A stretch of 64,000 bases of DNA, taken from contig OY820579.1 of assembly GCA_963681965.1 (NCBI GenBank), positions 4,128,001-4,192,000 of the forward strand, given 5' to 3'. Made by a program: the position numbers and the translations under genes. Below the pieces are notes generated by a model. It made no database searches and was not told the origin of the DNA. It saw only the letters and a list, made by a program, of their open reading frames with translations. The DNA comes from a bacterium (GTDB lineage Bacteria; Electryoneota; JAOADG01). Below, piece by piece: positions 10,223 to 26,003 of the stretch (position 1 is its first letter; every line of letters starts with the position of its first letter).

Positions 10223-13144
10223 TTATTCGCTGCGGTTTTGCTGCTGATATTTATAGTCTTTATTGTCCTCTTTGTAATAACCGGGGTAGAGTTTTTTCAT
10301 ACACTCGGGACAAATGCTATGAGAAAATTGCGCATCCGACCGCTCGGTGATATAGTGTTCGACTTGCAACCAATATCCTTTGTCGTCGCGAACGTGCTTG
10401 CAATTCGCGCAGATCGGAATTAGACCACTCAATACTTTGACATTTTCCAAAGCATCGGATAACTCTTTCGTGCGCGTCGCCACCCGCTCTTCCAACTTCG
10501 CATTGGCGCGTTTGACGGCTAGCAATCGAACAGTATAGATCAATACAATCACACCAATCACTATGACCGCTACCATCAATTTGAAGAGCATCGTTTCGTG
10601 ATAATATGCCGGCACGTTGATCGTGATGGTTTTCTTGAGATCCTGCTTCTTACCAAAAATATTGGTAGCTTTCAATTGAAAGGTATAGGTTCCCGGTGGA
10701 ATCTGATGGATGTTGACTTCATTCACCTTGGTCAGAAGCGAAAAACTGTCGCTCAATCCATCCAATTTCCACGAATAGCGATTGTTATGCTCGCTTACGA
10801 AATCCAACGATGCATAACGGATCTTAAGCGACCGTTGACCCCGCGGCAAATCGATCGAGGAGTGAATCGGATGCGAAGTATTGTTCGACCAAATCCCCGT
10901 TACCGCTACCGGTTTAGTATTGGTTCCAGAATTCCACAGTGTATTTAAATCGATAATGACGATATTGTTCGATTGGAGTAGTAAATAGCGATCGGGATCG
11001 ATTTCAATGATCCGTTTTACATTGTCTTCATCGAGACCGAATTGTCGATCGATCATATAATTCGACGTGGAATTGGCAAACAGTAACCCTTCCGATGTAG
11101 CATACAAGCGGTTTCCGTGCCGATCGAAAAATAGATCCTGATAACTGCATTTCTGATCCGATAACTCTTCCGGTCGCGAGATTCCGGAGCGATCGATTTT
11201 AACCACCCCTTCGCTTGCCAGAAAATAGAGATTACCCGATCCATCGGCGACGCACCGACTGATCGCACCGACATTGCCAACTTTCTTTAAGTCGCAATCG
11301 GTCAGTGAATCACCTTCCAATCGCATGAGCGATCCGGTGAAGGTGCCAAGATAGTAGCGCGAATCGAATGCATACCCGCCACACATCGCGATGTTGTCGC
11401 GCAACCGGTTCGCTATCGGCAGGTAGAGCAAAGTGTGATCGAAATCCCGCATATCCCATTGCACAAAATCTGCCGTACCGTAGCGATATAAATTATGATC
11501 TACCAAGCGGTAGCTGTGATTCCAATTGCCGAAAAAAGTTGTATTGTCGGGACCGGTGTAGGCGAAGTTGCAATACAACATCGCTTTTTCCCAATCCTTA
11601 TTGTAGATCAGTTTATCGCCCGTCCATTGGCAAATAAACCAACCGCAGTTAATCCACAACTTACCACTGCGATCCAATGAGAATACCGCTTTCTCACCGC
11701 CGGTATAAATATGACTCGCGAGTATTTTTACATTATTGTCGTGAATCAGGAACAGCGAAGAATCGGATAGCAGTACGATATCCTGATTTTTATCCAGCGC
11801 CAGACCTCGAATAATTTCTTCGCTGTTCAGTCGGATCGGTAGATCTGTCAGTTTCCCGCGGGAATAGCGGACCAATTTATTTTCGCAGGCGATATAGACG
11901 TCGCCATTGCGGTGTTTCACCGCTTCGACGGTTTCCTTAATAGCAGGAATTGTTTGCCGATTGTATTTCCTGATGCTGCTCGTGACCAGTTTTTGCAGAA
12001 TGCCTTCTTTGGTAGTAATCCAATAGATTCCCTGATCGTCGCGAAGACAATTGATTACGTCGTCGGAAACTAAACCGGTTGCTGCCGAGAACCGCAGCGT
12101 ATCGTTCGTGCGCAGAATCGTCAGACCATCGTTGTTGCCGACAACCTGCTCGGTTCCGAATAATTGAAAAAATGTCGTGGGTTTATCGAATGGGTCGACC
12201 GGTTTACATTTATGTAGCTCGTCGCCGATGATTTGGTAAACACCGTCGCGAGCATGGACCCATACATTTCCTTGATTATCGCGCAGGATTTTGTTAATGA
12301 ACCACCCCTTGGAATAAGCAGGTGCGATCCAAAATTTACTATTGGCAAGAAAGAAACTCTTACTGCGATCATTCGAATTAAATGTAAAACAGGTCGAATC
12401 GATCGTTTGTGCCGAATGATATACAAAACCGAGATGTATTCCGGGATATTTTTTTTGAAATTCCGCTTCCGGTAATCCTTCAAAATCTTTTAATAACGCT
12501 TTATCTTTCAGCTCCCACAGCGCCAGCAGCGTACTCAGTTTTACCCGATAAATTCCATCCATTTCGGATGCCAGCCAAAACGTCTCGGAAGTAGGATCGT
12601 AGGTAAAGTCGACCAGATAATTCGTCTGAAGATAAGTAGTATTGAAATTCCGCCAGATCCAAGCATAGAAGCCTTCGCCACGCTTCATGATCAGACCGGC
12701 AGATGTCGCGTAAAACGACATCCCCTTGATAAATTGCACATTCTTCACAACCAGATTGTGCAATGTCGGATCAACAGTGATTTTTCCAGTCTCCGGATCG
12801 TACACTGAAATCCCACTCCAGCTACAAATCCAGAGCTTACCATCAGGGGCTTCCACTATTTTGTAAGTATGGTTGTTCGAGAGCCCATCGCTCACGGAGA
12901 ATCGTTGGAATTCGTAACCGTCGTAACGCACAATTCCGCGCGATCCGGCAAACCAAAGGAAACCCCGGCTGTCTTGCATACTACCATTCACTTCGCCAAT
13001 ATCCGGGAAGTGGACATCGTCGTAAGTGTAGAACGCGTATTGTTGGGCTTGTGAACAGTGGGGAGAGAACAAAACCGCCAGACTGAGAATCAGTATGGAG
13101 AGCAGAGGAATTCGATTAATTACCGATCTCAAGTAATCGTTCAT
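10223..13144 (-). CDS. Membrane sensor: two-component-regulator beta-propellers, Y_Y_Y domain, TM helix, coiled coil and C-terminal CxxC...HxxCxxC module
   Basis: QDSRGFLWF...GIVRYDG...DGLSNN propeller repeats; YSWKLDG...PPGTYTFQLKA; TM; LEERVATRTKEL; LIPICANCKHVRDDKGYW...FSHSICPEC. Start uncertain (ATG 13144 gives a signal-like N-terminus). Confidence 0.82.
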   Translation of the reverse strand: MNDYLRSVINRIPLLSILILSLAVLFSPHCSQAQQYAFYTYDDVHFPDIGEVNGSMQDSRGFLWFAGSRGIVRYDGYEFQRFSVSDGLSNNHTYKIVEAPDGKLWICSWSGISVYDPETGKITVDPTLHNLVVKNVQFIKGMSFYATSAGLIMKRGEGFYAWIWRNFNTTYLQTNYLVDFTYDPTSETFWLASEMDGIYRVKLSTLLALWELKDKALLKDFEGLPEAEFQKKYPGIHLGFVYHSAQTIDSTCFTFNSNDRSKSFFLANSKFWIAPAYSKGWFINKILRDNQGNVWVHARDGVYQIIGDELHKCKPVDPFDKPTTFFQLFGTEQVVGNNDGLTILRTNDTLRFSAATGLVSDDVINCLRDDQGIYWITTKEGILQKLVTSSIRKYNRQTIPAIKETVEAVKHRNGDVYIACENKLVRYSRGKLTDLPIRLNSEEIIRGLALDKNQDIVLLSDSSLFLIHDNNVKILASHIYTGGEKAVFSLDRSGKLWINCGWFICQWTGDKLIYNKDWEKAMLYCNFAYTGPDNTTFFGNWNHSYRLVDHNLYRYGTADFVQWDMRDFDHTLLYLPIANRLRDNIAMCGGYAFDSRYYLGTFTGSLMRLEGDSLTDCDLKKVGNVGAISRCVADGSGNLYFLASEGVVKIDRSGISRPEELSDQKCSYQDLFFDRHGNRLYATSEGLLFANSTSNYMIDRQFGLDEDNVKRIIEIDPDRYLLLQSNNIVIIDLNTLWNSGTNTKPVAVTGIWSNNTSHPIHSSIDLPRGQRSLKIRYASLDFVSEHNNRYSWKLDGLSDSFSLLTKVNEVNIHQIPPGTYTFQLKATNIFGKKQDLKKTITINVPAYYHETMLFKLMVAVIVIGVIVLIYTVRLLAVKRANAKLEERVATRTKELSDALENVKVLSGLIPICANCKHVRDDKGYWLQVEHYITERSDAQFSHSICPECMKKLYPGYYKEDNKDYKYQQQNRSE

Positions 13145-13461
13145 CACTATTCGAAAGTTAGTTGTACCGAGCTGGCACTGTTCTTTTATATCGGCACTTT
13201 CCTGTAAATCATTATCAACTAAGTTGAGACGTATTGGTCTTGGCTGAAACCCCAAACATGACTGAGAAAACACTCTTTCAGTCTAATTATCAATATCGTA
13301 TCGTTGATTTCGGCAAGCAAATCGGAATTATGTCTATTACCAACTTCAGTACTATCGAAATCCGAACCTGTAACACGGTTATAATCTCGATTCTGGGCTA
13401 TTCGCCGAATCTCAGCATAACCCTATTCTAGCGAAAAAATCACAATTTATCTCATTTCCTA

Positions 13462-13541: not shown

Positions 13542-14288
13542 ATGGCGATAGATCTGGAAAAAATCCTACGACCAGTCGATACGCCCCTGCCACCTTTTCC
13601 GGCGAAATACATGACGCTTGCCGGTGGCGAGCAATTAGTAATCCGTCAAGTCTCCCGCGATGAAATTCCCGAGATTCTACCCCATGTCGAACCGCTGATC
13701 CATGTCGAGCGCGACTATTACGACATCGTTGCAGCACGGGTCTATGCCGAACTGCTGAGTTACTACACCTACCGGGTGCAGGATGAGTACGTTTTGGCGG
13801 CGCAGATCGATGGCGAGTTGGTCGCAGTGGTCAACGGTCGGATCGTGAACAAAGATGTCGGCATGTCCTTCCATACCCTTGCACTCCGGCGCGGTTTGCG
13901 CGTAGGCGCTCACGCCTTTGCGGCGAAGATGGAATATCACATCGATGTGCTTGGGCAAAAGGAAGTACTGATTGTTGCCGAATCGCCGATCGGTTTCCGG
14001 CGCTGGATGATCGAATATAAGTTGGAAAAACGCTTTGAAATTCCTCACGAATTGGGCGGTTGTCCATCGTGGGCACTCACCAAAGAGCTGTTCGATAAAG
14101 CGCGCGACAGTTTGATTGTCGGTCGTCGACCGGTCCCGGAAGCGTTGCTGGTGAAAGCGCATGCCGCCATCCTGCCGCCGACCGATCCACCGCGACCTCC
14201 GGTCGACCTGCTCGCCGCAACGCGCTCACTCTACGATTCCACCGGAACTGCGCTGCTCGAGCAGCGAAAACATCTGGGAGGAAACTAA
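13542..14288 (+). CDS. Hypothetical protein, possibly GNAT-fold
   Basis: Strong RBS; stop 1 bp before the thiolase-like start. The pattern LVIRQV...VLAAQIDGELVAVV...LRRGLRVG...EVLIV resembles GNAT topology (inference). Confidence 0.7.
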   Translation: MAIDLEKILRPVDTPLPPFPAKYMTLAGGEQLVIRQVSRDEIPEILPHVEPLIHVERDYYDIVAARVYAELLSYYTYRVQDEYVLAAQIDGELVAVVNGRIVNKDVGMSFHTLALRRGLRVGAHAFAAKMEYHIDVLGQKEVLIVAESPIGFRRWMIEYKLEKRFEIPHELGGCPSWALTKELFDKARDSLIVGRRPVPEALLVKAHAAILPPTDPPRPPVDLLAATRSLYDSTGTALLEQRKHLGGN

Positions 14289-14289
14289 T

Positions 14290-15465
14290 ATGCGCGATGT
14301 CTATGTAGCGGGAATCGGCATTACCAGTTTCACCCGGCTCGAGTATCCGTTGGTGGAAATTGCCGCCTATCCCGGATTGATGGCGATGAAAGAGAGCGGT
14401 ATCAAATCGATCGACCAACTCTATGTCGCCAACATGGGTGCTGCCCGGGTCAATCACCAGACCAGTCTTGCCAGTGCCGTCGTCGACAATCTGAGTTTGA
14501 CACCCGCCGGTGCAGTATCGGTTGAAAATGGTCCGGCATCCGGCGCTTCGGCAATCATGCAGGGTTTTCTCGCCGTCGCTTCGGGTGTGTACGATACCGT
14601 TATGGTCATCGGCGCCGAACGGATGCGCGAAGTGAACAATCTGGAAGCCACCGACTTCGTCGCGACACTCACTCACCCGATGGCGGAATACATCTACGGA
14701 ATCACACTCCCGTCGCTGGCGGGCATGTTCGCCCGGTTGTATATGGAAAAATACGGCGTTACCTCGCGACATCTCGCGATGGTCGCAGTAAAGAATCACA
14801 AACATGCGATGGACAATTTCTTTGCGCATCTGCACGAAGAGATAACGCTCGAAGGGATCCTCGATTCCCCAGACGCATCGACCAACAACCCGATCGTAGC
14901 CGACCCGTTGCGGTATTACGATATGTGCCCGGTATCCGATGGCGGTGCGTGCTTGATCTTGACTTCTGCCGATATCGCAAAGAAGACCGGCAAACCGATT
15001 GTGCGCCTCGCGGGTATCGGTCAGGCTACCGACACTCATGCCGTACACGACCGGAAGGATCCGACCGATCTGTTGGCGGTGCGGTTGGCAGCGCAAAAAT
15101 CGTTTGCAATGGCACAATTGACGCCGAAAGATGTCCATGTCGCCGAACTCCACGACGCATTCACGATTCTGGAAATTGCCGAAAGTGAAGAAGTCGGTTT
15201 CTTCGAACGCGGTCAGGGTCATATTGCGTTGCAGGAAGGATACACCAAAATCGGTGGTAAACTACCGATCAATCCATCCGGCGGTCTGAAGGCGAAGGGT
15301 CACCCGGTCGGCGCAACCGGCGTCGGACAGGCACACGAGATCGTGTTGCAGTTACGCGGCGAAGCCGCAAAACGGCAAGTGAAAGGGGCGAAAGTCGGTT
15401 TCACCTGCAATTTCGGCGGGTTCGGCAATAACGTCGTCTGTTTGACTTTTGTGCGGGAGGAGTGA
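14290..15465 (+). CDS. Thiolase-superfamily protein (SCP2/archaeal type) lacking the canonical nucleophilic Cys
   Basis: DMCPVSDGGA, ELHDAF, NPSGGLKAKGHPVGATG. VENGPASG replaces the usual VENACASG. Start ATG 14290 after GGGAGG. Confidence 0.9.
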   Translation: MRDVYVAGIGITSFTRLEYPLVEIAAYPGLMAMKESGIKSIDQLYVANMGAARVNHQTSLASAVVDNLSLTPAGAVSVENGPASGASAIMQGFLAVASGVYDTVMVIGAERMREVNNLEATDFVATLTHPMAEYIYGITLPSLAGMFARLYMEKYGVTSRHLAMVAVKNHKHAMDNFFAHLHEEITLEGILDSPDASTNNPIVADPLRYYDMCPVSDGGACLILTSADIAKKTGKPIVRLAGIGQATDTHAVHDRKDPTDLLAVRLAAQKSFAMAQLTPKDVHVAELHDAFTILEIAESEEVGFFERGQGHIALQEGYTKIGGKLPINPSGGLKAKGHPVGATGVGQAHEIVLQLRGEAAKRQVKGAKVGFTCNFGGFGNNVVCLTFVREE

Positions 15466-15815
15466 TCGTGGAAATGAATATTTATGCCTACAAGTGCAAG
15501 CGCTGCGGTCACGTGCAATACCCTTACCGTACGATCTGCCGCAATTGTCACGAAAACGACCACAACGAATTCGATATCGTACCGTTGCCGAAGTCCGGGA
15601 AGTTGGTGACCTACACGCATCTATACAATCCCCCTTCGGACTATGCGATTGTCTGCCTGACACTGGGCATCGTCGAACTCGAAGATGGCAACAAAATCAC
15701 TGGACAACTCAACATCAAAAATCCGCGAACCGGAATGCCGGTGACCGGAAAAGTGGAAGTGGTCCGCAAAGACGAATACAACAAATATTACGGGATGGTT
15801 TTCTACGAAGCCTGA
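15462..15815 (+). CDS. DUF35-type Zn-ribbon/OB-fold protein (thiolase partner)
   Basis: CKRCG...YP.R.ICRNC, GKLVTYT, LGIVELEDG. Abuts or overlaps the thiolase stop (start may be 15468 or 15474). Confidence 0.92.
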   Translation: MIVEMNIYAYKCKRCGHVQYPYRTICRNCHENDHNEFDIVPLPKSGKLVTYTHLYNPPSDYAIVCLTLGIVELEDGNKITGQLNIKNPRTGMPVTGKVEVVRKDEYNKYYGMVFYEA

Positions 15816-15879
15816 TCCCGACATACCGGATCAAGTAGCAATTCGCTCCCCGTTATCGAATGCGACCGACGGGGAGCAG

Positions 15880-16719
15880 TTGCCACAATTGCGAAGCTAC
15901 GGCGACGCGATTCGACGCGGTCACTTTCGCGTACACAGCCGGTTTGAGCATGTCGTCAATTTTCTCGATGGTGAGAATCTGGTATCGATTGTCGATCACT
16001 CTGTCGGTGCAGGTCCGACATCGATCATTCTCGATCGATTTACTCCAACCGAATGGTCTGCGCTGGCGATTTACTCCAATCGAATGCTACTCGATCGAAT
16101 GCGAATCGATCTCAACCCGGCGAATCAATATCAATCGCGAATCGCTTTTCCTCAGACGATCGAACAAATTCTGGTGATCGACAATATCGCTTCCCTGCAT
16201 GAACTTGTCGTGAGGCAAGCAACACCGGATAATTTGGCATTCCTGCTTTCCGACGATGAGGATATCGGAACCGATTTATCCTTCAAGGCGCAACTAAGAA
16301 CTCGGTTTTTTACCGCCAAAGCTCAGTTGGCAGCCGGGCAAATCGAAGCGGGCATCTCGCTCATCAAGGGCGTTGGTGTCGGATTGACACCGAGTGGCGA
16401 CGACTTTATCGCCGGAGCGATGGTCGCATTGCATTTACGGCAGCACTTATTTCCGATATCATTAACACAATTGATCGATCAAATTTATCAACGGTCGCAT
16501 TCGACCAATCCGATTGTAGCCACCATGCTGCGACAGGCACACGACGGTCGCGTGAATGAAAAATGGCAGCGTCTGATTACGGCGTTGACCGGTAATGAAC
16601 TGGATCGAATCAAACCACTCGCGCTAGACGTGCTTGCGACCGGCGCTACGTCCGGCGTCGATATGATGGTAGGTTTTCTCTTTGGCTTGACCAATTTCCG
16701 GTGTACACATGACAACTAA
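15880..16719 (+). CDS. DUF2877 family protein (YahE/YlbF-like)
   Basis: VHSRF..VVN, G.G.GLTPSGDDF..G, GATSG.D..G. Start uncertain. Confidence 0.88.
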   Translation: MPQLRSYGDAIRRGHFRVHSRFEHVVNFLDGENLVSIVDHSVGAGPTSIILDRFTPTEWSALAIYSNRMLLDRMRIDLNPANQYQSRIAFPQTIEQILVIDNIASLHELVVRQATPDNLAFLLSDDEDIGTDLSFKAQLRTRFFTAKAQLAAGQIEAGISLIKGVGVGLTPSGDDFIAGAMVALHLRQHLFPISLTQLIDQIYQRSHSTNPIVATMLRQAHDGRVNEKWQRLITALTGNELDRIKPLALDVLATGATSGVDMMVGFLFGLTNFRCTHDN

Positions 16720-18244
16720 CGGTCTTATCGTGCGCGGTGAATATTTCGATTCCGTCACGCTGATGATGGCGGCGAAGCGCGTCAATGAATTACCCGGTGT
16801 GATCGATAGTGCAATCGTGATGGGTACTGCCGAGAACAAAGCGATTTTAGCGGCATCGGGATTATTGATCGCGTCATTCGCAACGGCTACCGATGCCGAT
16901 TTGTTAATCGCGGCAAAAACCGACGATCCGGCTCGTGCCGAAACAATTCTTCCCGAAATCCGGGAATTATTGAAAACAATTCGGAAACGGGGAACATCCG
17001 GCAGCAAATCGTTACCGCGTACGCTCGATTCGGCAATCAAGCTATTACCGGATGCCAATCTCTGCATGATTTCGGTGGCGGGTCGTTTTGCCGGCGATGT
17101 CGCGATGAATGCATTGCAACACAATTTGCACGTGATGCTGTTCTCGGATAATGTCAGTGTCGAGCGGGAAATTGAATTGAAGCGCTTTGCGCGCGAACAC
17201 GGTTTGCTGCTGATGGGACCCGACTGCGGTACCGCGATTATCAACGGTGTTCCACTCGCGTTTGCGAATGTCGTTCAGCCGGGTGATATCGGTTGTGTCG
17301 CGGCAGCAGGAACGGGACTGCAGGAAGTCACGAGTCTCGTTTCGAATCTCGGCGGCGGTATCTCGCAAGCGATCGGCACCGGTGGTCGCGATGTCAAGCA
17401 AGCCGTCGGCGGAATTATGTTCCTCGAAACGATCCGCCTGCTGGCAGCAGATCCTGCCACAAAAGTCATCGTGCTGATTTCTAAACCGCCGCATCCCGAC
17501 GTTCTGAACAAGATTTTCGAACTTTGTATATCGATTACGAAACCGATTATCGCTTCGTTCCTCGGTGTCGATCCAGAAATCATTCGAGCTGCTGGTATGA
17601 TTCCGGCGCAATCCCTCGCCGCTGCCGCTCGTCGCGTAGTTGCATCGAGTAATCCGGAATTCGCTCCATCGGAATCGTCTGTGATCAATCCCAAAAAAGC
17701 ACCCGTCGAATTCACTGCGCAACAAAAATTTGTTCGTGGATTATTCAGTGGTGGCACTTTCTGTTACGAAGCGCAGTTGCTGTTGCACGATCTAACCGGT
17801 GCGATCTATTCGAATGCTCCAACTGGACGTTCGATCGCACTGGAAAATGTATTAGTAAGCCGCGAACACACGATCATCGATCTCGGTGAAGATGAATTCA
17901 CTGTCGGTCGACCGCACCCGATGATCGATTTTTCACTCCGCAACAAGCGGATTATTCAAGAAGCCGACGACCCTGAAACAGCGGTCATTCTGCTCGATCT
18001 GGTACTTGGCTATGGCGCGAACCGCGATCCACTTACCGACCTGCTACCGGCAATCCGGCAGGCGCAAGCCGTAGCAAAAGATCATTCTCGGAATTTACCC
18101 ATCGTCACTTCGGTGACGGGTACCGATAGCGATCCGCAGTGTCGTTCGACAGTGGTGGAAGGGCTCCGCAGCGCTGGAGTGATTGTTGCGGAATCGAATG
18201 CGGCAGCGTGCGAAATCGTAAAATCACTGCTCGGAATTCACTGA
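16709..18244 (+). CDS. fdrA: FdrA/YahF-like protein (succinyl-CoA synthetase alpha-like)
   Basis: YFDSVTLM, FSDNV, MGPDCGT, GTGLQE, GTGGRD, SKPP, GLFSGGT, GRPHPMID, LDLVLGYG. Confidence 0.92.
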   Translation: MTTNGLIVRGEYFDSVTLMMAAKRVNELPGVIDSAIVMGTAENKAILAASGLLIASFATATDADLLIAAKTDDPARAETILPEIRELLKTIRKRGTSGSKSLPRTLDSAIKLLPDANLCMISVAGRFAGDVAMNALQHNLHVMLFSDNVSVEREIELKRFAREHGLLLMGPDCGTAIINGVPLAFANVVQPGDIGCVAAAGTGLQEVTSLVSNLGGGISQAIGTGGRDVKQAVGGIMFLETIRLLAADPATKVIVLISKPPHPDVLNKIFELCISITKPIIASFLGVDPEIIRAAGMIPAQSLAAAARRVVASSNPEFAPSESSVINPKKAPVEFTAQQKFVRGLFSGGTFCYEAQLLLHDLTGAIYSNAPTGRSIALENVLVSREHTIIDLGEDEFTVGRPHPMIDFSLRNKRIIQEADDPETAVILLDLVLGYGANRDPLTDLLPAIRQAQAVAKDHSRNLPIVTSVTGTDSDPQCRSTVVEGLRSAGVIVAESNAAACEIVKSLLGIH

Positions 18245-18286
18245 ATTGTTCCAAAGAAAATACATGTATCGAGGAAATAGCCAATC

Positions 18287-19690
18287 ATGAGCAATTTATT
18301 CGATCAAAAATTAAATGTGATTAATGTCGGTCTGGAATCGTTTAAGACGACACTCGATGAATCGGGAACGCCCGCAGTGCAGATGGATTGGCGTCCACCA
18401 CTGGCGGTGAGTACGGCTGCTCGCGATGCGATCACCGCTCATCGCACCGAAATCGACCAAGCGAATCGCGAGACGGTCGACCGCATCATCGCCGGAAAAC
18501 CATATTGGATTGGCTTGGGTCACGCGCTTGAATGTATCCCCGGCATGCACCCGAAATTGATTCTGCACGCCGGACCACCGATCACCTGGGAGCGGATGTG
18601 CGGACCGATGCGCGGCGCGATCATCGGCGCGTTGTTGTATGAAGGACTCGCCGCGGACGAAGTCACAGCCGAACAGATGGCGGCATCCGGCGAAATCGAA
18701 TACGCCCCGTGTCATGAACACGCCACAGTCGGTCCAATGGCGGGAATCGTGTCGGCGTCGATGCCGGTCTCGGTGGTGTTCAATGCCACGTTTGGCAATT
18801 ATGCCTACACCACACTGAATGAAGGTCTTGGTAAAGTATTGCGCTACGGTGCCTACAGCCCAGAAGTACTGACCCGCTTAAAGTGGATGGAACGCGTGTT
18901 GTTTCCGGTGCTGCAGGCTGCCGTCGCCCATGCCGAGAAAATCGATCTCAAAGCGATCATAGCCCAAGCGCTGCACATGGGCGATGAAGTGCACAACCGC
19001 AATCGCGCGGCGACCTCGCTGCTCTACCGTACATTGGCAACACATATCGTGCGTACTGCCGAGGATTACGAAACCGCTGCGAAAGTACTCGACTTCATCA
19101 ACGGTAACGATCATTTCTTCCTGAATCTTTCCATGGCATCCGGGAAAGCATGTCTCGATGCTGCGCGCGATATTCCCAATAGCAGCGTCGCCATCGTGAT
19201 GGCACGCAATGGTACCGACTTCGGGATCCAACTATCCGGCACGGGAAATCGCTGGTTCACCGGTCCTGCGCCGGTTCCCGATGCACTCTTCTTTCCCGGA
19301 TTCACGAAAGCCGATGCCAATCCCGACATCGGCGACAGCGCTATCACCGAAACGTATGGTCTCGGCGGTTTCGCGATCGCAGCATCACCCGCGATCGTGC
19401 AATTCGTCGGCGGTCAAGCCAGCGACGCGCTGCAATACACTTTGAAGATGTACGACATCACGACAGCGGAGAATCCCGGATTCCAAATTCCCGCGCTCGA
19501 TTTCCGCGGTACGCCGATCGGGATCGATGTCCGTAAAGTTGTCGATACCGGCATTCTCCCGTTTATCGATACGGGCGTCGCACACAAAAAACCCGGCATC
19601 GGTCAAGTTGGAGCAGGAGTGTTATCAGCACCGCCGGAACCGTTTATCAACGCCTTTGAAGGTTTTTCCGAACAATACCGAAACGCATAA
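18287..19690 (+). CDS. DUF1116 family protein (YahG/YlbE-like)
   Basis: N-terminal VINVG...DWRPP, LHAGPP, VGPMAG, NEGLGKVLRYGA, MGDE.HNRN, RNGTDFG, PDIGDSAITE, GQVGAG. Confidence 0.92.
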   Translation: MSNLFDQKLNVINVGLESFKTTLDESGTPAVQMDWRPPLAVSTAARDAITAHRTEIDQANRETVDRIIAGKPYWIGLGHALECIPGMHPKLILHAGPPITWERMCGPMRGAIIGALLYEGLAADEVTAEQMAASGEIEYAPCHEHATVGPMAGIVSASMPVSVVFNATFGNYAYTTLNEGLGKVLRYGAYSPEVLTRLKWMERVLFPVLQAAVAHAEKIDLKAIIAQALHMGDEVHNRNRAATSLLYRTLATHIVRTAEDYETAAKVLDFINGNDHFFLNLSMASGKACLDAARDIPNSSVAIVMARNGTDFGIQLSGTGNRWFTGPAPVPDALFFPGFTKADANPDIGDSAITETYGLGGFAIAASPAIVQFVGGQASDALQYTLKMYDITTAENPGFQIPALDFRGTPIGIDVRKVVDTGILPFIDTGVAHKKPGIGQVGAGVLSAPPEPFINAFEGFSEQYRNA

Positions 19691-19728
19691 CGAACGAATA
19701 CAATCAATCGAAAATGAAGGAGCAGAGC

Positions 19729-20541
19729 ATGAAGACTGAAGAATTTCTGGCATTCATGGGCAAATTGAAGCTCTACGATTTAACCCAGCGACTTTCGATC
19801 CACACCCCCCCGTGGCCGAGTTACATGCCGCTCGGGATCCAGTATTTCAAGCGCATCGCTGGCGCACACATGGGTCAGGGCGCCAATGGTCAAATCATCA
19901 CGACCAGCAATCATGTCGGTACCCATATCGATGGCGAGATTCATTTTCACGCGAGCGGTCGTGCGATCGGTCAGGTTCCGATGACGGAGTGGGTTGGTGA
20001 TGGCGTGATTGTCGATATTTCTAAAGAGGTCGAGGATTACGGTCTCTATTCGCCGGATTTATTGATGAGCAAAGCCGAAATCAAGAAGGGCGACATTCTG
20101 ATCATCAATACCGGCTATCACAAGTATGCCTGGGATCAACCCGGTTCCGACGAAATCCGCTACTTCGTGAAGCATCCCGGACCCGATCCGGAATTTCACA
20201 AGTGGGCGCTAAAAATGAAATTCAAGTGGATCGGCGTCGATTGCGGCAGCGCCGACCATCCGATGAACACAATCATTCGCAACTGGCATCCGAAACCGTT
20301 CATCGAAGCCGAGAAGAAATTGAAGAAGCAGTACGGCAAGGATTGGGATGAATTCTTCCCACCGGAAATTTATTATCAGGTAATGCACCTAAAATTGTTC
20401 CCGAAGAAATTGGTGCATGCCGAAAATCTCGGTGGTGAAATCGACAAACTCTCCAACAAACGCGCGTGGATCGGTCTGTTCCCGTTGCGCGGTATCGAGC
20501 TGGAATCGTCGATGTGCCGGATTGTCGCAATGCTTCCCTGA
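19729..20541 (+). CDS. Metal-dependent cyclase/hydrolase (kynurenine formamidase-like family)
   Basis: HVGTHID motif, GDILIINTG, GVD..S.DHP, HAENLGG. AAGGAG RBS before ATG 19729. Confidence 0.92.
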   Translation: MKTEEFLAFMGKLKLYDLTQRLSIHTPPWPSYMPLGIQYFKRIAGAHMGQGANGQIITTSNHVGTHIDGEIHFHASGRAIGQVPMTEWVGDGVIVDISKEVEDYGLYSPDLLMSKAEIKKGDILIINTGYHKYAWDQPGSDEIRYFVKHPGPDPEFHKWALKMKFKWIGVDCGSADHPMNTIIRNWHPKPFIEAEKKLKKQYGKDWDEFFPPEIYYQVMHLKLFPKKLVHAENLGGEIDKLSNKRAWIGLFPLRGIELESSMCRIVAMLP

Positions 20542-20611
20542 TCGGTGTTGGGGATTGGTGCTTGGTGCGAGGAAAAGAAGTCGGGTGCATTGAGGATGAA
20601 CTACTTTTTTG

Positions 20612-20750
20612 GTAGGGGCGGTTCGCGAACCGCCTGTATCTAGTGGATAATTACTTGCGAAATTTTGCAGGCTCTTTCGGCAGAAGGGGCGGACCCCCGT
20701 GTCCGCCCGCAGATATTTTTTACTAGTACCGGTACTCTTGTCTGTACACG
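20612..20750. repeat. REP-like hairpin cluster inside the catabolic cluster
   Basis: GTAGGGGCGGTTCGCGAACCGCC at 20612, GGGCGGACCCCCGTGTCCGCCC at about 20686, and a degenerate ...TGTCTGTACACGT. Confidence 0.8.
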
Positions 20751-20831
20751 TTGTGCAGCGCCGATCATAGCATCCTGACAATAATAGATTTATTACAGTT
20801 TGACCGATACAAGCGTTAATGAGGAGTCGTC

Positions 20832-21719
20832 ATGGCGATCCTGCATGAATTCGACTACCACCGCCCGGAAACGGTGTCGGCGGCAGTCAAACTACTGACC
20901 AAATTCAAACATCCGATGTTGCTGGCAGGCGGCACCGATCTGATCAATGAATTGAAAGCGGAAGTCATCCACCCGGATGGAGTCATCGATCTCAAAGCAA
21001 TTCCCGAACTGCACGACATTACATTTTCGAATGGCGTCTTGACAATCGGTGCGGCTGTGACTTTTGCCGAATTGATCGAATCGCGGATCATTCAAACGAA
21101 ATTCCCGGTGATTGCGGAAGTCGCGCGAACCGTCGGTTCCACCGGTGTTCGCAATCGCGCCACCATGATCGGGAATATCTGTTCCGCCGTTCCCTGTGCC
21201 GACAGCGCCCCGTTGCTCACCGCCTATGAAGCGCACGTGTTGGTGCGCAGCCTCCGATCGAAACGAAAAATTCCGATCGCCTCGTGGTTCATCGGCAATC
21301 GCAAAACCGCCATCAAACCGGGTGAGATCGTTACTGCGGTGGAAATCGCATTGCCTGCCCGCAATCATGCCGGTTGCTTTGTGAAGTTGGGTCGCTACTC
21401 CGGTGAAGATCTGGCGCAAGCGAGTGTGATTATACTCGCGCTACCGAAACGCCAATATCGCATCGCGTTTGGTTCGGTCGGGATTACGCCAATTCGCGCC
21501 GAGCGGCTGGAAAAGCTGTTGAACGGGCATCTTCCATCGGACGAGCGTATTGCTGAAGCCAAAGCCATCATTCCGGAAATTGTCAAACCGATCTCCGATA
21601 TCCGTGCCTCGAAAGAGTACCGGTTACATATGTGTCAGGTAATGTTTGCGCGCGGAATCGAAGCCGCCGTCGCACGCCTGAATGGTAACGGTTCCGAATA
21701 CGGTTCGAAGTTGATCTAG
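20832..21719 (+). CDS. Xanthine dehydrogenase/CoxM-family FAD-binding subunit
   Basis: LAGGTDL, IGA.VT, RN.AT..GN....P.AD, D.RAS.EYR. Confidence 0.93.
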   Translation: MAILHEFDYHRPETVSAAVKLLTKFKHPMLLAGGTDLINELKAEVIHPDGVIDLKAIPELHDITFSNGVLTIGAAVTFAELIESRIIQTKFPVIAEVARTVGSTGVRNRATMIGNICSAVPCADSAPLLTAYEAHVLVRSLRSKRKIPIASWFIGNRKTAIKPGEIVTAVEIALPARNHAGCFVKLGRYSGEDLAQASVIILALPKRQYRIAFGSVGITPIRAERLEKLLNGHLPSDERIAEAKAIIPEIVKPISDIRASKEYRLHMCQVMFARGIEAAVARLNGNGSEYGSKLI

Positions 21720-21733
21720 GAGAGCGTGTCGCC

Positions 21734-22243
21734 ATGAACAATAAAACAGCATTTATCCTGAATGGTCAATCCGTGGAAATCGCGGTGGAACCGCATGAAA
21801 TCCTACTCGACGTGTTGCGCTACAAGCTCGGTGTGAAAAGTCCGAAATGCGGCTGCGATCGCGGCGATTGCGGGTCGTGTACCGTCATGATCGACGGTCG
21901 CACCGTCCGCAGTTGCATGGTGCTTGCGATCGAAATTGCCGGGCAGCGTGTCACGACCCTCGAAGGCTTGATGGCAGGCGGCGAGCTGACCAATCTGCAA
22001 CAGGCATTCCTGAAACATAATTCGTTTCAGTGTGGCTACTGCGCACCCGGAATGATTCTCTCCGCGACCGAATTGCTTGCGAAAAATCCTCATCCCGACA
22101 AGACCGAAATCAATCAAGCGATCGCGGGTAACCTCTGTCGCTGTACCGGATATCATCCGATCACCGATGCAATCGTCGAAGTCGCGAACGAAGCACCTCC
22201 GCCACCGAAAATTGCCAAAGCTGCGAAAGGAGGTCGGCGATGA
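21734..22243 (+). CDS. Xanthine dehydrogenase/CoxS-family [2Fe-2S] subunit
   Basis: GCDRGDCGSCTV...SC, QCGYCAPG, GNLCRCTGY. Confidence 0.95.
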   Translation: MNNKTAFILNGQSVEIAVEPHEILLDVLRYKLGVKSPKCGCDRGDCGSCTVMIDGRTVRSCMVLAIEIAGQRVTTLEGLMAGGELTNLQQAFLKHNSFQCGYCAPGMILSATELLAKNPHPDKTEINQAIAGNLCRCTGYHPITDAIVEVANEAPPPPKIAKAAKGGRR

Positions 22244-24585
22244 GTGAACTCAATTTTGTCGGTCACGATGCCATTCGAGTGGATGGAAAAGTCAAAGTCA
22301 CCGGTGCCGCACAATTCGTCGACGATCTCGAATTCGGTCCCGGATTGTTGTTTGCCGAAATCATCGAGAGTCCCCACGCACATGCATTGATCAAAAAAAT
22401 CGATACCCGTGCGGCGGAAAAAGTGCCGGGTGTCGTGAAGATCGTCACTGGCGCCAATTTTCCGTATCGCTTCGGGTTGTATATGCACGACCGGTATATC
22501 TTTGCGCAGGATCGTGTCCGGTTCGTCGGCGAGCAAGTCGCCGCAGTGATCGCGCGCGATGTCGTGACGGCGAAGCGCGCCGCGAAACTGGTGAAAGTGA
22601 CCTATCGGGAACTCCCGCCGATCCTCGATGTCGCAACCGCAATGTCGCCTGATGCCTTGTTGATCCATCCCGAATTGAAAGGATACCACCACGTCCCGTG
22701 GTTCTTCCCGCAAGCGGACAGCAATATTGCGCACTGGCGCAAAGTCCGGAAAGGGGATACCGACGCAGGGATGCGCGAAGCCGATTTTATCTTCGAAGAT
22801 ACTTACACCGTTCCACGATATGCGCATTGCGCCATCGAGACTCATGGTGCCGTCGGACAATTCGATTTGTCGGGACGATTGACTGTCTGGTCGGCATCTC
22901 AATCGCCGTTCACTCAGCGCAATCTCTTTGCCGAAGCGCTTGCACCGTTGGGCATTACGCATAGCGATGTGCGGGTAATCGCACCGTATGTTGGTGGTGG
23001 ATTTGGCGGTAAAGCCGGAGTGTCGATGGAGATTCTCGCGGCAGCATTGGCAACTGCCGTACAGGGAAATCCGGTGAAAGTGCTCTGGTCGCGCGAACAG
23101 GAATTTTACAACACCTATCAGCGGCAAGGGGTGACGGCGAAAACCAAAATCGGTGTGAAGCGCGACGGTACGATCACTGCGCTGGAACAGACGTTGTATT
23201 GGGATGCCGGCGCGTATGTCGAATATGGCGCGAATGTCGTGAATGCCGCCGGTCTCTCTGCTACCGGACCATACCGCATTCCGCATGTCAAAATCGATTC
23301 GTATTGCGTCTATACCAATCTCCCGCCGGGTGGTCCGTACCGCGGCTTCGGCTATTCCGAATTCCTGTTCGGTCTCGAATCGCACATCAACGAAACCGCG
23401 AAAGCGCTCGGCATCGATCCAGTCGAGTTCCGGCGGATCAACGCGATTCAGGCGGGCGACACGCTAACCTACGGTGCGAAAATGAATCCAAGCGGGATGA
23501 AAGAGTGTATCGATAAAGCGGCAGCAGCAATCGAATGGGGCACGCCATCGCTTCCATCCGACAACCCGAATATCTTGAAAGGGAAAGGCTTCGCCTGCTT
23601 CTGGAAAGCACCGGCAATGCCGCCGAATGCGGCTTCGACCGCATTCATCAAATTCAATGAAGATGCCAGTCTGAATATTCTGGTATCTGCGATGGAGATC
23701 GGACAAGGCTTCCTGACAGTGATGGCGCAAATTGCCGCGGAGGTTTTAACAATTCCGGTCGAAAAGATTCGCGTTGAATTGCCGGACACCGATCGCAATC
23801 CGTACGAATGGCAAACCGTCGCCTCGCATATCACGTGGGGTACCGGCAATGCCGTCAAGAAGGCGGCGGAGGATTGCCGTGAGCAAATCTTTGCCGTGGT
23901 CGAACGCGCACTCGGCAAGTCGCACGAGGATTTATTTCTCGTGAATGAGGAAGTACATTCTCACAAAGATCTGGAATTCATCCTTCCGTTACGGAATTTC
24001 GTGATCAACGGGATCATGATGCCTGACGGCACCTTTCGCGGCGGTCCGATCATGGGACGTGGCACCTTCATGCCGGAATTTGCCTCGGCGCAATCCGATC
24101 CCGAGACCAGTCAAGGCAGCAAACCGAATGTTCATTACACCGTCGGTGCTGCTGCCGTTGAAGTCGAAATCGATCGTGAAAGCGGGAGTGTCCGCATTCC
24201 CCGGGTCGCGCTCGCAGTCGATGTCGGCAAGGCGATCAATCCCGGTCTGGTGAAGGATCAGGTGATCGGTGGATTAATGCAGGGGATCGCGACGGTGCTC
24301 TATGAAGACATGCGGTTCGATGCAAAGGGACGAATGCTGAACGACAACTTCACCGACTATAAAATTCCGACGGCACTCGATGTTCCCGACGAAGTGATTC
24401 CGATTATCGTCGAAGTCGCGCAACCGGACGGTCCCTATGGCGCTCGCGGGATGGGTGAACATACGATGATTCCAGCCGCGCCGATGATTGCGAATGCGAT
24501 CGAGAATGCGACCGGTATTCGAATCAAAGCGATGCCGATCACTGCCGAAAAAATCGCACTGGCAATCAAGAATCGCGGAGCGTAA
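22240..24585 (+). CDS. Xanthine dehydrogenase-family molybdopterin-binding subunit
   Basis: KVTG.A.F.DD, GGGFGGK, YRGFG, EIGQG, DYKIPT, GPYGARGMGE (catalytic Glu). ATGA overlap with the small subunit. Confidence 0.95.
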   Translation: MSELNFVGHDAIRVDGKVKVTGAAQFVDDLEFGPGLLFAEIIESPHAHALIKKIDTRAAEKVPGVVKIVTGANFPYRFGLYMHDRYIFAQDRVRFVGEQVAAVIARDVVTAKRAAKLVKVTYRELPPILDVATAMSPDALLIHPELKGYHHVPWFFPQADSNIAHWRKVRKGDTDAGMREADFIFEDTYTVPRYAHCAIETHGAVGQFDLSGRLTVWSASQSPFTQRNLFAEALAPLGITHSDVRVIAPYVGGGFGGKAGVSMEILAAALATAVQGNPVKVLWSREQEFYNTYQRQGVTAKTKIGVKRDGTITALEQTLYWDAGAYVEYGANVVNAAGLSATGPYRIPHVKIDSYCVYTNLPPGGPYRGFGYSEFLFGLESHINETAKALGIDPVEFRRINAIQAGDTLTYGAKMNPSGMKECIDKAAAAIEWGTPSLPSDNPNILKGKGFACFWKAPAMPPNAASTAFIKFNEDASLNILVSAMEIGQGFLTVMAQIAAEVLTIPVEKIRVELPDTDRNPYEWQTVASHITWGTGNAVKKAAEDCREQIFAVVERALGKSHEDLFLVNEEVHSHKDLEFILPLRNFVINGIMMPDGTFRGGPIMGRGTFMPEFASAQSDPETSQGSKPNVHYTVGAAAVEVEIDRESGSVRIPRVALAVDVGKAINPGLVKDQVIGGLMQGIATVLYEDMRFDAKGRMLNDNFTDYKIPTALDVPDEVIPIIVEVAQPDGPYGARGMGEHTMIPAAPMIANAIENATGIRIKAMPITAEKIALAIKNRGA

Positions 24586-24626: not shown

Positions 24627-24650
24627 AAACCCGCCTTATTGGCGGGTTTT
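24627..24650. terminator. Intrinsic terminator between convergent genes
   Basis: AAACCCGCC-ttatt-GGCGGGTTTT. Confidence 0.75.
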
Positions 24651-24695
24651 GGCGTTATACACAGTTTTGAATGGATGGCGATTCGAATCTTCTGT

Positions 24696-25826
24696 TTATT
24701 CACCCAACAGTCGTTCGTACAGTGCAAACAGCTTTTCCTCTTCCGGTTCCCAACGAATATTCTTGCGCACCCATTCCCGAGCAGCCGCTCCTGCTCGCAC
24801 GCGCTCCCGTTCGTCCGACAGCACGGCAGCGATCGTATCGGCAATCGCAGTGGCATCTTCGGGAATGTAATAGACGCCGGGCAGATCGTTCGGCAGCACG
24901 TCCGCCAACGCTGCCAGTTTCGTGGTAATCACCGGTACGCCCCAACCGAGGTAGTAGAAGATTTTTTGCGGAATATTGAACCGGTAGCGATCAACCATCG
25001 TCGGCATCACTGCCAATTTCGCCATTGCCATTAAATCGTAATTCTCGTCGAGTGAAACATAACCGCGATGCTCGACCAATTCTTCGATACCGCGCGAAAT
25101 CAACGCTCGATCCCAGGGCAACAATTCCGGATCGGTCGGCGGTGTGCCGGTAAAAATCATTCGTGTCGGTCTACCGCGATCCTTTAACATTTTCAGAGCA
25201 TCGAGGATCAATGTCCCGCCGCGATCTTGTGTCAAAATACCGCCGTAATGCAGTTCCGGATGATTGCTCGGACGTTCCGGAATCGCGCGGTCCAATTCGA
25301 ATTGAAAGGGGAAATTCAACAACGGCTGTACCGGTTTGATCCGTTTATCGAGATAATAGCGTGCCGTCGGATTGTCGCTTGTCAACGTTGCATCGACTTG
25401 GTGCACCAGAAACGGAATGATATCGTTGGAAAACCACTGAAAGAATGGTTGCTTGAAGGTGCCCTGAGCATAATCGGCATATCGCGCGGCATCCGGATAG
25501 AATTCGTACGAATCGAAGATCGATGCGACATGTCGACGTTTGGCAATTTCAATCAAGATCGGCAATTGTTCGGGTGAATTGATCTGAATCGCGTCGGGCG
25601 GATCTGCCAGCATTTTGCGGCGATAAATTTTCATTCGCTCGTAACGTTCGCGAAACGATTGTCCCCCGGGATACCCGAAGATCTCGATTCCATCGACAAT
25701 TTTGTGATCGAATTTCGCGCGCGCGTGGATCTCGACCCGGTATTTTTTGGCGAGAGAGCGCGCAATACGCCACATCCGGACGTAATCCCACTGCGTGATG
25801 GTCGCTAGATGTACAATTCGTTTCAT
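24696..25826 (-). CDS. Glycosyltransferase family 4 (GT-B)
   Basis: D..E.YP, YGG....RG, P.K.F.Y...GVPVITT, C-terminal WE. Start uncertain. Confidence 0.85.
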   Translation of the reverse strand: MKRIVHLATITQWDYVRMWRIARSLAKKYRVEIHARAKFDHKIVDGIEIFGYPGGQSFRERYERMKIYRRKMLADPPDAIQINSPEQLPILIEIAKRRHVASIFDSYEFYPDAARYADYAQGTFKQPFFQWFSNDIIPFLVHQVDATLTSDNPTARYYLDKRIKPVQPLLNFPFQFELDRAIPERPSNHPELHYGGILTQDRGGTLILDALKMLKDRGRPTRMIFTGTPPTDPELLPWDRALISRGIEELVEHRGYVSLDENYDLMAMAKLAVMPTMVDRYRFNIPQKIFYYLGWGVPVITTKLAALADVLPNDLPGVYYIPEDATAIADTIAAVLSDERERVRAGAAAREWVRKNIRWEPEEEKLFALYERLLGE

Positions 25827-26003
25827 TGGAATAGTGATCAAATTCGTCGAGTACTGAAATAAACGCTTCTGTTTAGCGGTCGGAACGAAATCACGACCGA
25901 ACTAGACAGCTTATATAATACAGGGAACGTGAAAATATCGTGAATAATCGCGATTAATGCAACCGAAATTTTTCCGACCATTTCTGGTATTCTTTATCTT
26001 GAA

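Follow-up and report, generated by a model that had tools for sequence, protein, structure and literature searches.

A ten-gene cluster proposed to break down pyrimidines

What compound is handled by ten neighboring genes that combine a thiolase-like protein without its nucleophilic cysteine, relatives of the three Escherichia coli AllFGH subunits, a cyclase-family hydrolase and a molybdenum (Mo) hydroxylase? This question was raised by a stretch of 64,000 nucleotides (nt; hereafter the window) from the 4.24-Mb complete genome of a bacterium of the phylum Electryoneota (contig OY820579.1; G000:C1:4128001-4192000). An earlier note on this DNA, made from its sequence alone, had proposed anaerobic hydroxylation, ring opening and CoA-linked cleavage of an unknown nitrogen heterocycle. 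This general logic fits the comparative data presented here, which point to uracil or thymine, degraded via barbiturate, as the probable substrate. The cluster probably encodes an oxygen-independent oxidative breakdown of uracil and thymine, in which barbiturate is converted to ureidomalonate, ureidomalonate to carbamoyl phosphate and malonamate, and the latter to a CoA ester; the substrate of each step is proposed from protein families, gene linkage and the displacement of one gene by another. The ten genes, all on the forward strand, are as follows.

13542..14288, + strand: g1, GNAT-fold protein of 248 amino acids, first gene of the g1-g2-g3 trio; without Pfam or NCBIfam match
14290..15465, + strand: g2, thiolase-fold protein (SCP-x/archaeal type) with Pro82 at the position of the nucleophilic Cys
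15462..15815, + strand: g3, DUF35 protein (zinc ribbon CxxC...CxxC and OB fold); alternative ATG at 15474
15880..16719, + strand: g4, AllH/DUF2877-like subunit (PF11392)
16709..18244, + strand: g5, FdrA-like subunit (CoA_binding and Ligase_CoA; PF00549/PF02629), GRPHP motif at residues 400-404
18287..19690, + strand: g6, AllG/DUF1116-like subunit (PF06545) with a YahG-type N-terminal extension
19714..20541, + strand: g7, metal hydrolase of the cyclase family (KynB/isatin-hydrolase type; PF04199), proposed non-homologous barbiturase
20832..21719, + strand: g8, FAD-binding medium subunit of the Mo hydroxylase (PF00941 and PF03450)
21734..22243, + strand: g9, small subunit with 2x[2Fe-2S] (PF01799 and PF00111)
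22240..24585, + strand: g10, molybdopterin large subunit (PF02738, PF20256, PF01315), proposed uracil/thymine dehydrogenase

The domains named in the earlier note (thiolase, DUF35, AllH, FdrA, AllG, cyclase and the FAD, 2Fe-2S and Mo subunits) were all recovered in Pfam and NCBIfam searches. One correction concerns the thiolase-like gene, the start of which is at 14290, after a GGAGG sequence, and not at the beginning of the long open reading frame (ORF) at 14161.

In the proposed pathway, g8-g10 would oxidize C6 of uracil, yielding barbiturate, or that of thymine, yielding 5-methylbarbiturate; the oxygen would come from water. The barbiturate ring would be opened to ureidomalonate by g7, which would take the role of a barbiturase without being related to that enzyme. 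Ureidomalonate is an N-acylurea, which g4-g6 would cleave with phosphate to carbamoyl phosphate and malonamate. The template for this step is the measured reaction of E. coli AllFGH, a phosphate-dependent cleavage of an N-acylurea in which oxalurate and inorganic phosphate yield carbamoyl phosphate and oxamate (PMC11326118). Ureidomalonate can be regarded as oxalurate with one extra CH2 group. The single carbamate kinase of the genome could then make ATP. The least secure step is the last one, in which g1-g3 would turn malonamate or the malonyl unit into a CoA ester. Where the trio is missing in other lineages, this end step would fall to an amidase or a C-N hydrolase, with or without a CoA-transferase. 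Neither a description of the cluster nor one of a phosphorolytic or an anaerobic oxidative pyrimidine route was found in the full-text literature, the coverage of which stops short of subscription journals.

Genes of the barbiturase family and for nucleobase permeases accompany the cluster genes in some loci

The substrate is indicated by loci in which another ring-opening enzyme is present in the place of the cyclase. Two sets of loci were compared. Genomes, one per species, were scanned with the AllG-like protein, and the best 80 of at least 541 relatives were kept as loci. In a second scan, metagenome contigs carrying g1 were collected (79 loci), which brings the total of the two scans to 159 loci. 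Both an AllG gene and the FAD subunit gene were present in 18 of the g1-derived loci, and in 15 of these the cyclase gene was located between them. The remaining three (L168, L177, and L178) contained no cyclase gene and carried a gene of the AtzD family upstream of a FdrA-AllG-FAD-FeS-Mo-g1-g2-g3 array, to which an NCS2 permease gene was added in L177 and L178. The AtzD-family protein of L168 aligned with the solved barbiturase 5hwe_A at 508 bits and with the best-scoring cyanuric acid hydrolase at 311.6 bits. It shares with barbiturase an Asn at the position where that cyanuric acid hydrolase has an Arg (YSRGAS). Cho et al. (PMC4051656) report that one active-site Arg of these hydrolases is replaced in the barbiturase subgroup, a residue that may correspond to this position. 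Of the loci searched by tblastn with the L168 protein, L168, L177, and L178 alone gave matches; the window gave none, and the barbiturase/cyanuric acid hydrolase domain (PF09663) was not detected by Pfam in any of the ten window proteins.

NCS2 permease genes were found in seven loci (L059-L061, L170, L173, L177, and L178). For the permeases of L060 and L178 the best NCBIfam model was that of uracil permease (350.6 and 340.7 bits, respectively), followed by RutG and then by xanthine permease. The NCS2 permease gene located after the trio in L177 (10359-11664) is broken up into two ORFs that overlap, while L178 has a single ORF of 465 amino acids. The presence of barbiturase in the place of the cyclase, together with permeases of the uracil type, therefore points to uracil or thymine as the substrate and to barbiturate as the intermediate.

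Barbiturase homologues were also found in a plasmid collection, on two large actinomycete replicons, neither of which has an AllFG-like gene beside the barbiturase gene. In L180 (Embleya sp. NBC_00888, NZ_CP108785.1 2152540-2181628) a carbamate kinase gene directly precedes the barbiturase homologue, and a gene for a family III CoA-transferase is located upstream. On the other strand of L180, about 8-12 kb away, are genes for a distant Mo hydroxylase (28% identity) with its Fe-S and FAD subunits and for an NCS2 permease.

A seven-gene core with interchangeable end modules

To count core genes and modules, the 80 AllG-derived loci were searched by tblastn with the window proteins. Seven genes, encoding AllH, FdrA, AllG, the cyclase and the FAD, Fe-S and Mo subunits, were complete in 40 of the 80 loci, and most of the loci with an incomplete core are interrupted by contig ends. 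The carriers are labeled as Elusimicrobia, Cloacimonadota, Verrucomicrobiota, Eisenbacteria, Acidobacteriota, Bdellovibrionales, Ignavibacteria and others. Identity to the window proteins was 64-80% for the Mo subunit and 73-88% for the cyclase across loci, and 62-76% for the AllG-like subunit across phylum labels. Exactly one of four end modules accompanied the core in 37 of the 40 complete loci, and no locus carried two.

Family III CoA-transferase and amidase: 14 of 40 complete loci, of which 3 also have an NCS2 permease and 5 a HIT protein
C-N hydrolase: 13 of 40
g1-g3 trio: 9 of 40, one of them cut by a contig end
Isochorismatase-type hydrolase: 1 of 40
No module: 3 of 40

The g1-g3 trio is thus one of four interchangeable end modules, and the core consists of the seven genes only. 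The family III CoA-transferase of the first module most closely resembles enzymes of the oxalate, mesaconate and glutarate types, and in two incomplete loci (L020 and L082) a pair of family I CoA-transferase genes takes the place of the module. Such a distribution of modules would be expected if a small dicarboxylic amide were hydrolyzed at its amide bond and activated with CoA.

The association of the thiolase module with the genes resembling E. coli yahEFG, the absence of which elsewhere would have counted against the proposal of the earlier note, recurred in both sets of loci. The two modules occur together in 12 of the 80 AllG-derived loci, and at least one core gene was found in 30 of the 32 g1-derived trio loci with at least 3 kb of sequence after g3 (AllH only in 6 of these 30). 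An AllG-like gene was present in none of the three other genomes of the class to which the window belongs, one of which is of the same genus and 96% complete, and in 3 of the 78 other genomes of the phylum. One of the latter three (G078), which belongs to another family, has the identical order of ten genes, with 73-92% identity for most of the proteins. This patchy distribution suggests lateral spread.

The cyclase and the molybdenum hydroxylase

The g7 protein matched PF04199 at 112 bits, and its HVGTHIDGEIH sequence aligns with the metal site of kynurenine formamidase (4cob). It keeps the H-x-G-T-H-x-D-x-x-x-H site and is distant from both kynurenine formamidase and isatin hydrolase. A function as arylformamidase was ruled out, as the corresponding model (TIGR03035) scored 46 bits against a cut-off of 223.

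The domains of g8-g10 and the catalytic Glu place the three subunits in the xanthine oxidase family. The FAD-binding subunit g8 (295 amino acids) has four scattered Cys residues, is without the 4Fe-4S insert of the beta subunit of 4-hydroxybenzoyl-CoA reductase (4-HBCR), and matched the model TIGR03195 in two stretches at 110.3 bits (cut-off 404.55). The large subunit g10 reached no NCBIfam cut-off; its best score was with XdhA (547.5 against 780), and TIGR03194 (HcrA) scored 537.9 bits against 994.55. The catalytic Glu (GMGEH) and the Arg of the YRGFG motif are retained in all 40 orthologues of g10. All 40 also have Ala directly after the GGGFGGK motif, where the canonical xanthine dehydrogenase (XDH) of the same genome (XdhB) has Glu. 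We take the Glu at this position to be the substrate-binding residue of XDH (bovine Glu802). Judged by its sequence, g10 is a new subfamily of Mo hydroxylases.

Three other assignments were considered for this enzyme. A canonical xanthine dehydrogenase was ruled out by the Ala at the position of the substrate Glu and by all XDH cut-offs being unmet. Xanthine and urate were set aside as substrates, since g10 is without the XDH Glu and the genome has a separate purine island (see below). A reductive role like that of 4-HBCR was set aside because of the scores below cut-off and the FAD subunit without 4Fe-4S insert.

Observations weighing against uracil or thymine as substrate

Several observations weigh against the proposed breakdown of uracil and thymine. 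The AtzD-family protein of L168 scored 453.7 with the NCBIfam model for cyanuric acid amidohydrolase, the cut-off of which is 360, and the three loci with such a protein are close kin (85-89% identity in the shared piece) and effectively represent one event. The permeases of L060 and L178 are under the cut-off of 477 for uracil permease, and no NCS2 or NCS1 permease was found in the genome of the window itself. Five loci (L043, L044, L051, L058, and L075) are long enough to hold the entire core yet are without some of its genes (the Mo genes or the cyclase), and among the g1-derived loci the trio stands with AllH alone in six and without any core gene in two. Of the 159 loci, L115 alone has a carbamate kinase gene next to the cluster. 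The solved chain nearest to g10 is the alpha subunit of 4-HBCR, with 357 bits and 256 bits for the next family, which would rather fit a reductive enzyme with a CoA ester as its substrate. Finally, in the classical pathway of Rhodococcus, ureidomalonate is hydrolyzed to urea and malonate and no phosphate takes part.

The same succession of reactions could act on another nitrogen heterocycle. The compound opened by the hydrolase would then be a cyclic imide other than barbiturate, for example a hydantoin- or parabanate-type compound giving oxalurate, cyanurate formed from 5-azauracil, or an intermediate from a substituted pyrimidine or pyridine. That the L168 protein exceeds the cyanuric acid amidohydrolase cut-off and that the Mo subunit reaches no curated cut-off would both agree with this, as would the CoA-transferase of the Cloacimonadota variant, which is nearest to CoA:oxalate CoA-transferase (370 bits, cut-off 522) and fits a conversion of oxamate to oxalate. 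We nevertheless consider another heterocycle unlikely: the L168 protein is far nearer to the solved barbiturase than to any cyanuric acid hydrolase in terms of bit score, the permeases rank uracil above RutG and RutG above xanthine, a single hydrolase between a hydroxylase and a ureide-cleaving enzyme suits the route from uracil via barbiturate to ureidomalonate, and the wide spread of the gene family argues for a common natural substrate.

The AllH-, FdrA- and AllG-like subunits and purine genes elsewhere in the genome

All three subunits encoded by g4-g6 matched their Pfam families above the cut-offs (FdrA domains 124.5 and 25.6 bits, AllG 324 bits, AllH 85.7 bits). Over about 110-120 residues, g4 is 26% identical to YahE and 30% to YlbF. 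The FdrA-like protein g5 passes the NCBIfam model PRK06091 (499.9 bits, cut-off 433), is 43% identical to YahF and 41% to AllF, and aligns with the E. coli FdrA chain 3dmy at 310 bits. The AllG-like protein g6, which is present in one copy in the genome, is 46% identical to YahG and 49% to YlbE, and its residues 7-37 match residues 509-539 of E. coli FdrA. The yah-like layout recognized in the earlier note is therefore confirmed: the order AllH-FdrA-AllG is that of yahEFG, and the segment is located on the N-terminus of AllG. The identity to YahFG is no higher than that to AllFG, so that orthology to YahEFG is not established.

The His of the GRPHP motif in FdrA, which was said in the earlier note to be retained, is indeed present, and the same motif occurs in 3dmy. 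It had been taken as a sign that FdrA possibly conserves energy. Energy conservation as such fits the proposed formation of carbamoyl phosphate; carbamoyl phosphate and a distant carbamate kinase are a simpler explanation than the FdrA His. The energy role of this His is less favored because the genome has a carbamate kinase gene at another place and because the motif lies outside the stretch that can be aligned with the alpha subunit of succinyl-CoA synthetase.

As the earlier note had reported, carbamate kinase, allantoinase and a transporter are absent from the cluster; this was found by Pfam and NCBIfam scans of the cluster and its flanks. The sole carbamate kinase gene of the genome (G000:C1:3261549-3262472) is about 880 kb away from the cluster. 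Its product passes PRK12352 (308 bits, cut-off 266) and stays just below the cut-off of TIGR00746 (347 against 358). Within G000:C1:3257000-3264000 (L099:13499-19833) this gene overlaps a co-oriented ORF of 444 amino acids, without NCBIfam match, by 4 nt, and transposase genes of the IS5 and IS1595 families are located close to it.

A purine island on the minus strand of the same genome (G000:C1:1028001-1048000, L098; genes at 1.028-1.046 Mb) encodes a canonical XDH (TIGR02965, 818 bits), an 831-amino acid YgfK/PreA-like protein, SsnA, YgeY and a hydantoinase-like protein. It also encodes an XdhD-like pair of Mo and Fe-S subunits, YgeW, pyridoxal phosphate enzymes and a MocA-like protein. These genes match the set described for the reductive uric acid pathway (PMC12507026).

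These data bear on a second alternative, in which g4-g6 would be an oxamate carbamoyltransferase acting on oxalurate from purines or allantoin, the Mo enzyme would be an XDH and the carbamate kinase would be supplied from elsewhere. All three AllFGH families are indeed present, FdrA exceeds the PRK06091 cut-off, the genome has a carbamate kinase, and XdhA models are among the top NCBIfam matches of the Mo subunit. Such a function has very little chance of being correct, as allantoinase, allantoate amidohydrolase, ureidoglycine aminohydrolase and ureidoglycolate dehydrogenase were all lacking from the cluster and from the conserved neighbors examined in the AllG-derived loci, the Mo subunit is without the XDH substrate Glu and below all XDH cut-offs, XDH and urate breakdown are already provided for by the separate island, and g5 and g6 are about equally far from AllFG and YahFG (41-49% identity).

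The slimmest chance of all is left for an anaerobic aromatic-acid pathway with a 4-HBCR-like Mo enzyme acting reductively on a CoA thioester, FdrA as acyl-CoA synthetase and a BbsAB-like cleavage by thiolase and DUF35 protein, for although g10 is nearest to the 4-HBCR alpha chain (357 vs. 256 bits) and matches TIGR03194 (538 bits), g2 matches BbsB (164.7 bits), g3 matches BbsA (40.4 bits) and FdrA has CoA-binding and CoA-ligase domains, the scores are far under the cut-offs (994.55 for HcrA, 750 for BbsB, and 250 for BbsA), the FAD subunit has no 4Fe-4S insert, the thiolase-like protein has no nucleophilic Cys, the trio is dispensable and replaced by amidases in most loci, and it is nucleobase permeases and barbiturase that travel with the core, not aromatic-acid genes.

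The g1-g3 trio

Under the proposed breakdown of uracil and thymine, the trio would act last. The order of its genes is fixed: all 51 g1-derived metagenome loci that extend far enough have g2 after g1, and all 48 that extend far enough for g3 have this gene as well. The g1 family is tiny (206 representatives at E<=1e-3 among 1.84 billion). No Pfam or NCBIfam match was obtained for g1, and searches against the sequences of solved structures gave chance-level matches only. An AlphaFold2 model from an alignment of 38 sequences (predicted local distance difference test, pLDDT, 86.9) was used in preference to one from 12 sequences (pLDDT 57.5), which was set aside. All top Foldseek matches of this model were GNATs (E about 1e-6, probability 1.00), and with VIA it was superimposed on the GNAT PA3270 with a Z-score of 12.9 and a root-mean-square deviation of 3.2 A over 164 residues. 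The nearest ESM Atlas clusters are automatically named N-acetyltransferase. After strand 4 the family has an invariant R117-G118-L-R120-V-G122 sequence, which is near to, and does not exactly match, the acyl-CoA pyrophosphate loop. In GNATs this loop has the motif Q/R-x-x-G-x-G/A. By its predicted fold, g1 is a GNAT. Its designation as GNAT in the earlier note is thus supported by fold, without any sequence match in Pfam, NCBIfam or the Protein Data Bank.

The g2 protein matched the Pfam Thiolase_N and Thiolase_C families and, at 391 bits, the NCBIfam model PRK06064, the cut-off of which is 420. Archaeal-type thiolases (7yvy, 244 bits; 6esq, 217 bits; also 4yzo) could be aligned with it over the full length, and its identity across loci was 73-91%. 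Solved thiolases have VEAACASG where g2 has VENGPASG, and the HDCF motif of 6esq is HDAF in g2. The description of this thiolase as lacking the nucleophilic cysteine was borne out: Pro82 is found at the nucleophile position in 11 of 11 orthologues, in which N328 (NPSGG) and H338 (GHPVGATG), which we take to be the residues of the thiolase oxyanion hole, are also invariant. From these alignments, g2 is a protein of thiolase fold without the nucleophilic Cys. For g3, Pfam recognized zf-ChsH2 and OB_ChsH2_C, and the BbsA-like NCBIfam model gave the 40 bits mentioned above. The four Cys residues of its zinc ribbon are invariant in 12 sequences.

In six loci (L126, L127, L133, L138, L151, and L161) the trio is followed by AllH/DUF2877, and FdrA and AllG were not found in the remaining 3.1-8.5 kb. 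AllH may work with the trio as well as with FdrA and AllG. In L026 (6886-7605) a g1 homologue (64% identity) is located directly 5' of AllH-FdrA-AllG without the thiolase-like and DUF35 genes, and is itself preceded by an ORF of 493 amino acids without Pfam match.

A thiolase fold without nucleophile and with its oxyanion hole could, as a speculation, serve to stabilize a thioester enolate, as in decarboxylation, with the GNAT as a CoA-dependent subunit. Malonyl-CoA decarboxylase was absent among the 50 VIA matches listed for g1, which is neutral with respect to a decarboxylase role. A more specific version, which we regard as quite doubtful, is that g1-g2-g3 form a new complex converting malonamate and CoA to acetyl-CoA, CO2 and NH3, in which the GNAT would perform an N-to-S acyl transfer and the Cys-less thiolase would act as an enolate-stabilizing decarboxylase that pulls the reaction forward. 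If this were true, one uracil ring would yield two energy-rich compounds without oxygen, counting the carbamoyl phosphate from the AllFGH-like enzyme. As an invariant set of three genes the trio is the most original part of the cluster, and its chemistry is a problem in its own right.

Gene arrangement and DNA context

The ten co-oriented genes reported in the earlier note were confirmed as ORFs on the plus strand spanning 13542-24585, and both flanking genes are unrelated and on the opposite strand. Further features in and around the cluster are the following.

10223-13273, - strand: upstream neighbor, Reg_prop/Y_Y_Y protein
20542..20831, no strand: spacer of 290 nt with two dispersed repeats, candidate internal terminator or attenuator
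24627..24652, + strand: GC hairpin (CCCGCC/GGCGGG) followed by TTTT, 3' of g10, terminator-like by eye only
24696-25841, - strand: downstream neighbor, glycosyltransferase

The overlapping and abutting of genes was likewise confirmed by the coordinates, with a gap of 1 nt between g1 and g2 and overlaps of 4 nt (g2/g3), 11 nt (g4/g5) and 4 nt (g9/g10). The single promoter and single terminator postulated earlier fared less well. No site was called upstream of g1 in a promoter scan, which was limited to sigma-70-type sites, and the terminator scan called none after g10, where only the hairpin and TTTT seen by eye (24630-24650) are present. A single operon is not established either, as the 290-nt spacer with its hairpin-bearing repeats splits the cluster between g7 and g8. 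Copies of the repeats gave 54 matches in the same genome. Each of the two repeats in the spacer bears a GC-rich hairpin (about 20601-20651 and 20677-20781), and the predicted fold of the spacer has a free energy of -50.3 kcal/mol (z -3.47). The repeats comprise a hairpin element of about 40 nt and a second element of about 100 nt. No such gap is present in L005, the nearest relative that shares the gene order. With a spacer of dispersed repeats and neither promoter nor terminator called, a single transcript is not established. The G+C content of the cluster is 51-55%, compared to 45-46% in the immediate flanks.

An amidohydrolase is encoded at 32414-33646 of the window, some 8 kb downstream of the last cluster gene. 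Its best model was 5'-deoxyadenosine deaminase (470 bits, cut-off 522); models for guanine deaminase and 8-oxoguanine deaminase came next. Three BNR proteins with a type IX secretion system tail are encoded between this gene and the cluster.

Relation to known systems and significance

The classical oxidative pyrimidine pathway of Rhodococcus, Corynebacterium and Mycobacterium consists of uracil/thymine dehydrogenase, barbiturase (PDB 5hwe) and ureidomalonase. The same intermediates, from uracil via barbiturate to ureidomalonate, are proposed here. The ring opener of the cluster, however, belongs to the cyclase/KynB family and not to the AtzD 'Toblerone' family, cleavage would be phosphorolytic (yielding carbamoyl phosphate) and not hydrolytic (yielding urea), the end steps would be CoA-linked, and the carriers are mostly uncultured lineages presumed to be mainly anaerobic.

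Similar to g2-g3 are the thiolase and DUF35 protein of the archaeal acetoacetyl-CoA thiolase/HMG-CoA synthase/DUF35 system (6esq, 6et9), which also has three tightly coupled genes; its three proteins presumably form a complex. In g2, by comparison, Pro replaces the nucleophilic Cys and Ala the Cys of HDCF, and the partner is a GNAT-fold protein and not HMG-CoA synthase. With the XDH/4-HBCR branch, g8-g10 share the three-subunit layout of Mo, FAD and 2x[2Fe-2S] centers, the catalytic Glu and the Arg of YRGFG. They differ in the Ala of g10 at the XDH substrate-Glu position, in g8 being without the 4Fe-4S insert, and in that no curated cut-off is reached.

E. coli AllFGH (FdrA-YlbE-YlbF) consists of the same three families as g4-g6, and the N-acylurea phosphorolysis proposed here is like that of AllFGH (Kim and Kim, 2024; PMC11326118). 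The gene order differs, and a segment of about 50 residues is located on AllG in the window and on the FdrA C-terminus in E. coli AllF. In addition, neither a carbamate kinase gene (allK) nor allantoin genes (allECD) adjoin g4-g6, which stand with genes for a Mo hydroxylase and a ring-opening hydrolase and would act on ureidomalonate rather than on oxalurate. E. coli YahEFG has the same order (DUF2877-FdrA-DUF1116), the N-terminal extension on AllG and similar lengths (511 vs. 515 and 467 vs. 472 amino acids), whereas in the window neither a YahI-like kinase nor a YahJ-type amidohydrolase adjoins, and the proteins are no more similar to YahFG than to AllFG. The reductive uric acid pathway (XdhD, YgfK, SsnA, HyuA, YgeW, YgeY, and YgeX) is also a nucleobase route of anaerobes; its first enzyme is an XDH homologue, and ureido groups are released by a carbamoyltransferase (Li et al., 2025; PMC12507026). 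It has another gene set, which the genome of the window carries separately.

The cluster most likely serves the oxidation of pyrimidines by enzymes so far unlinked to that pathway. Knowledge of the oxidative pathway comes from studies of enzymes in a few aerobic actinomycetes. To our knowledge, and in agreement with the full-text literature, no genes have been assigned to uracil/thymine dehydrogenase or to a ureidomalonate-cleaving step, and the cluster provides testable gene candidates for both. If the proposed pathway is correct, g7 would be a second, unrelated barbiturase, and ureidomalonate would be the first compound besides oxalurate to be recognized as a substrate of an AllFGH/YahEFG type of enzyme, which would offer a lead for the function of E. 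coli yahEFG. Many uncultured lineages would then be able to gain ATP from pyrimidines.

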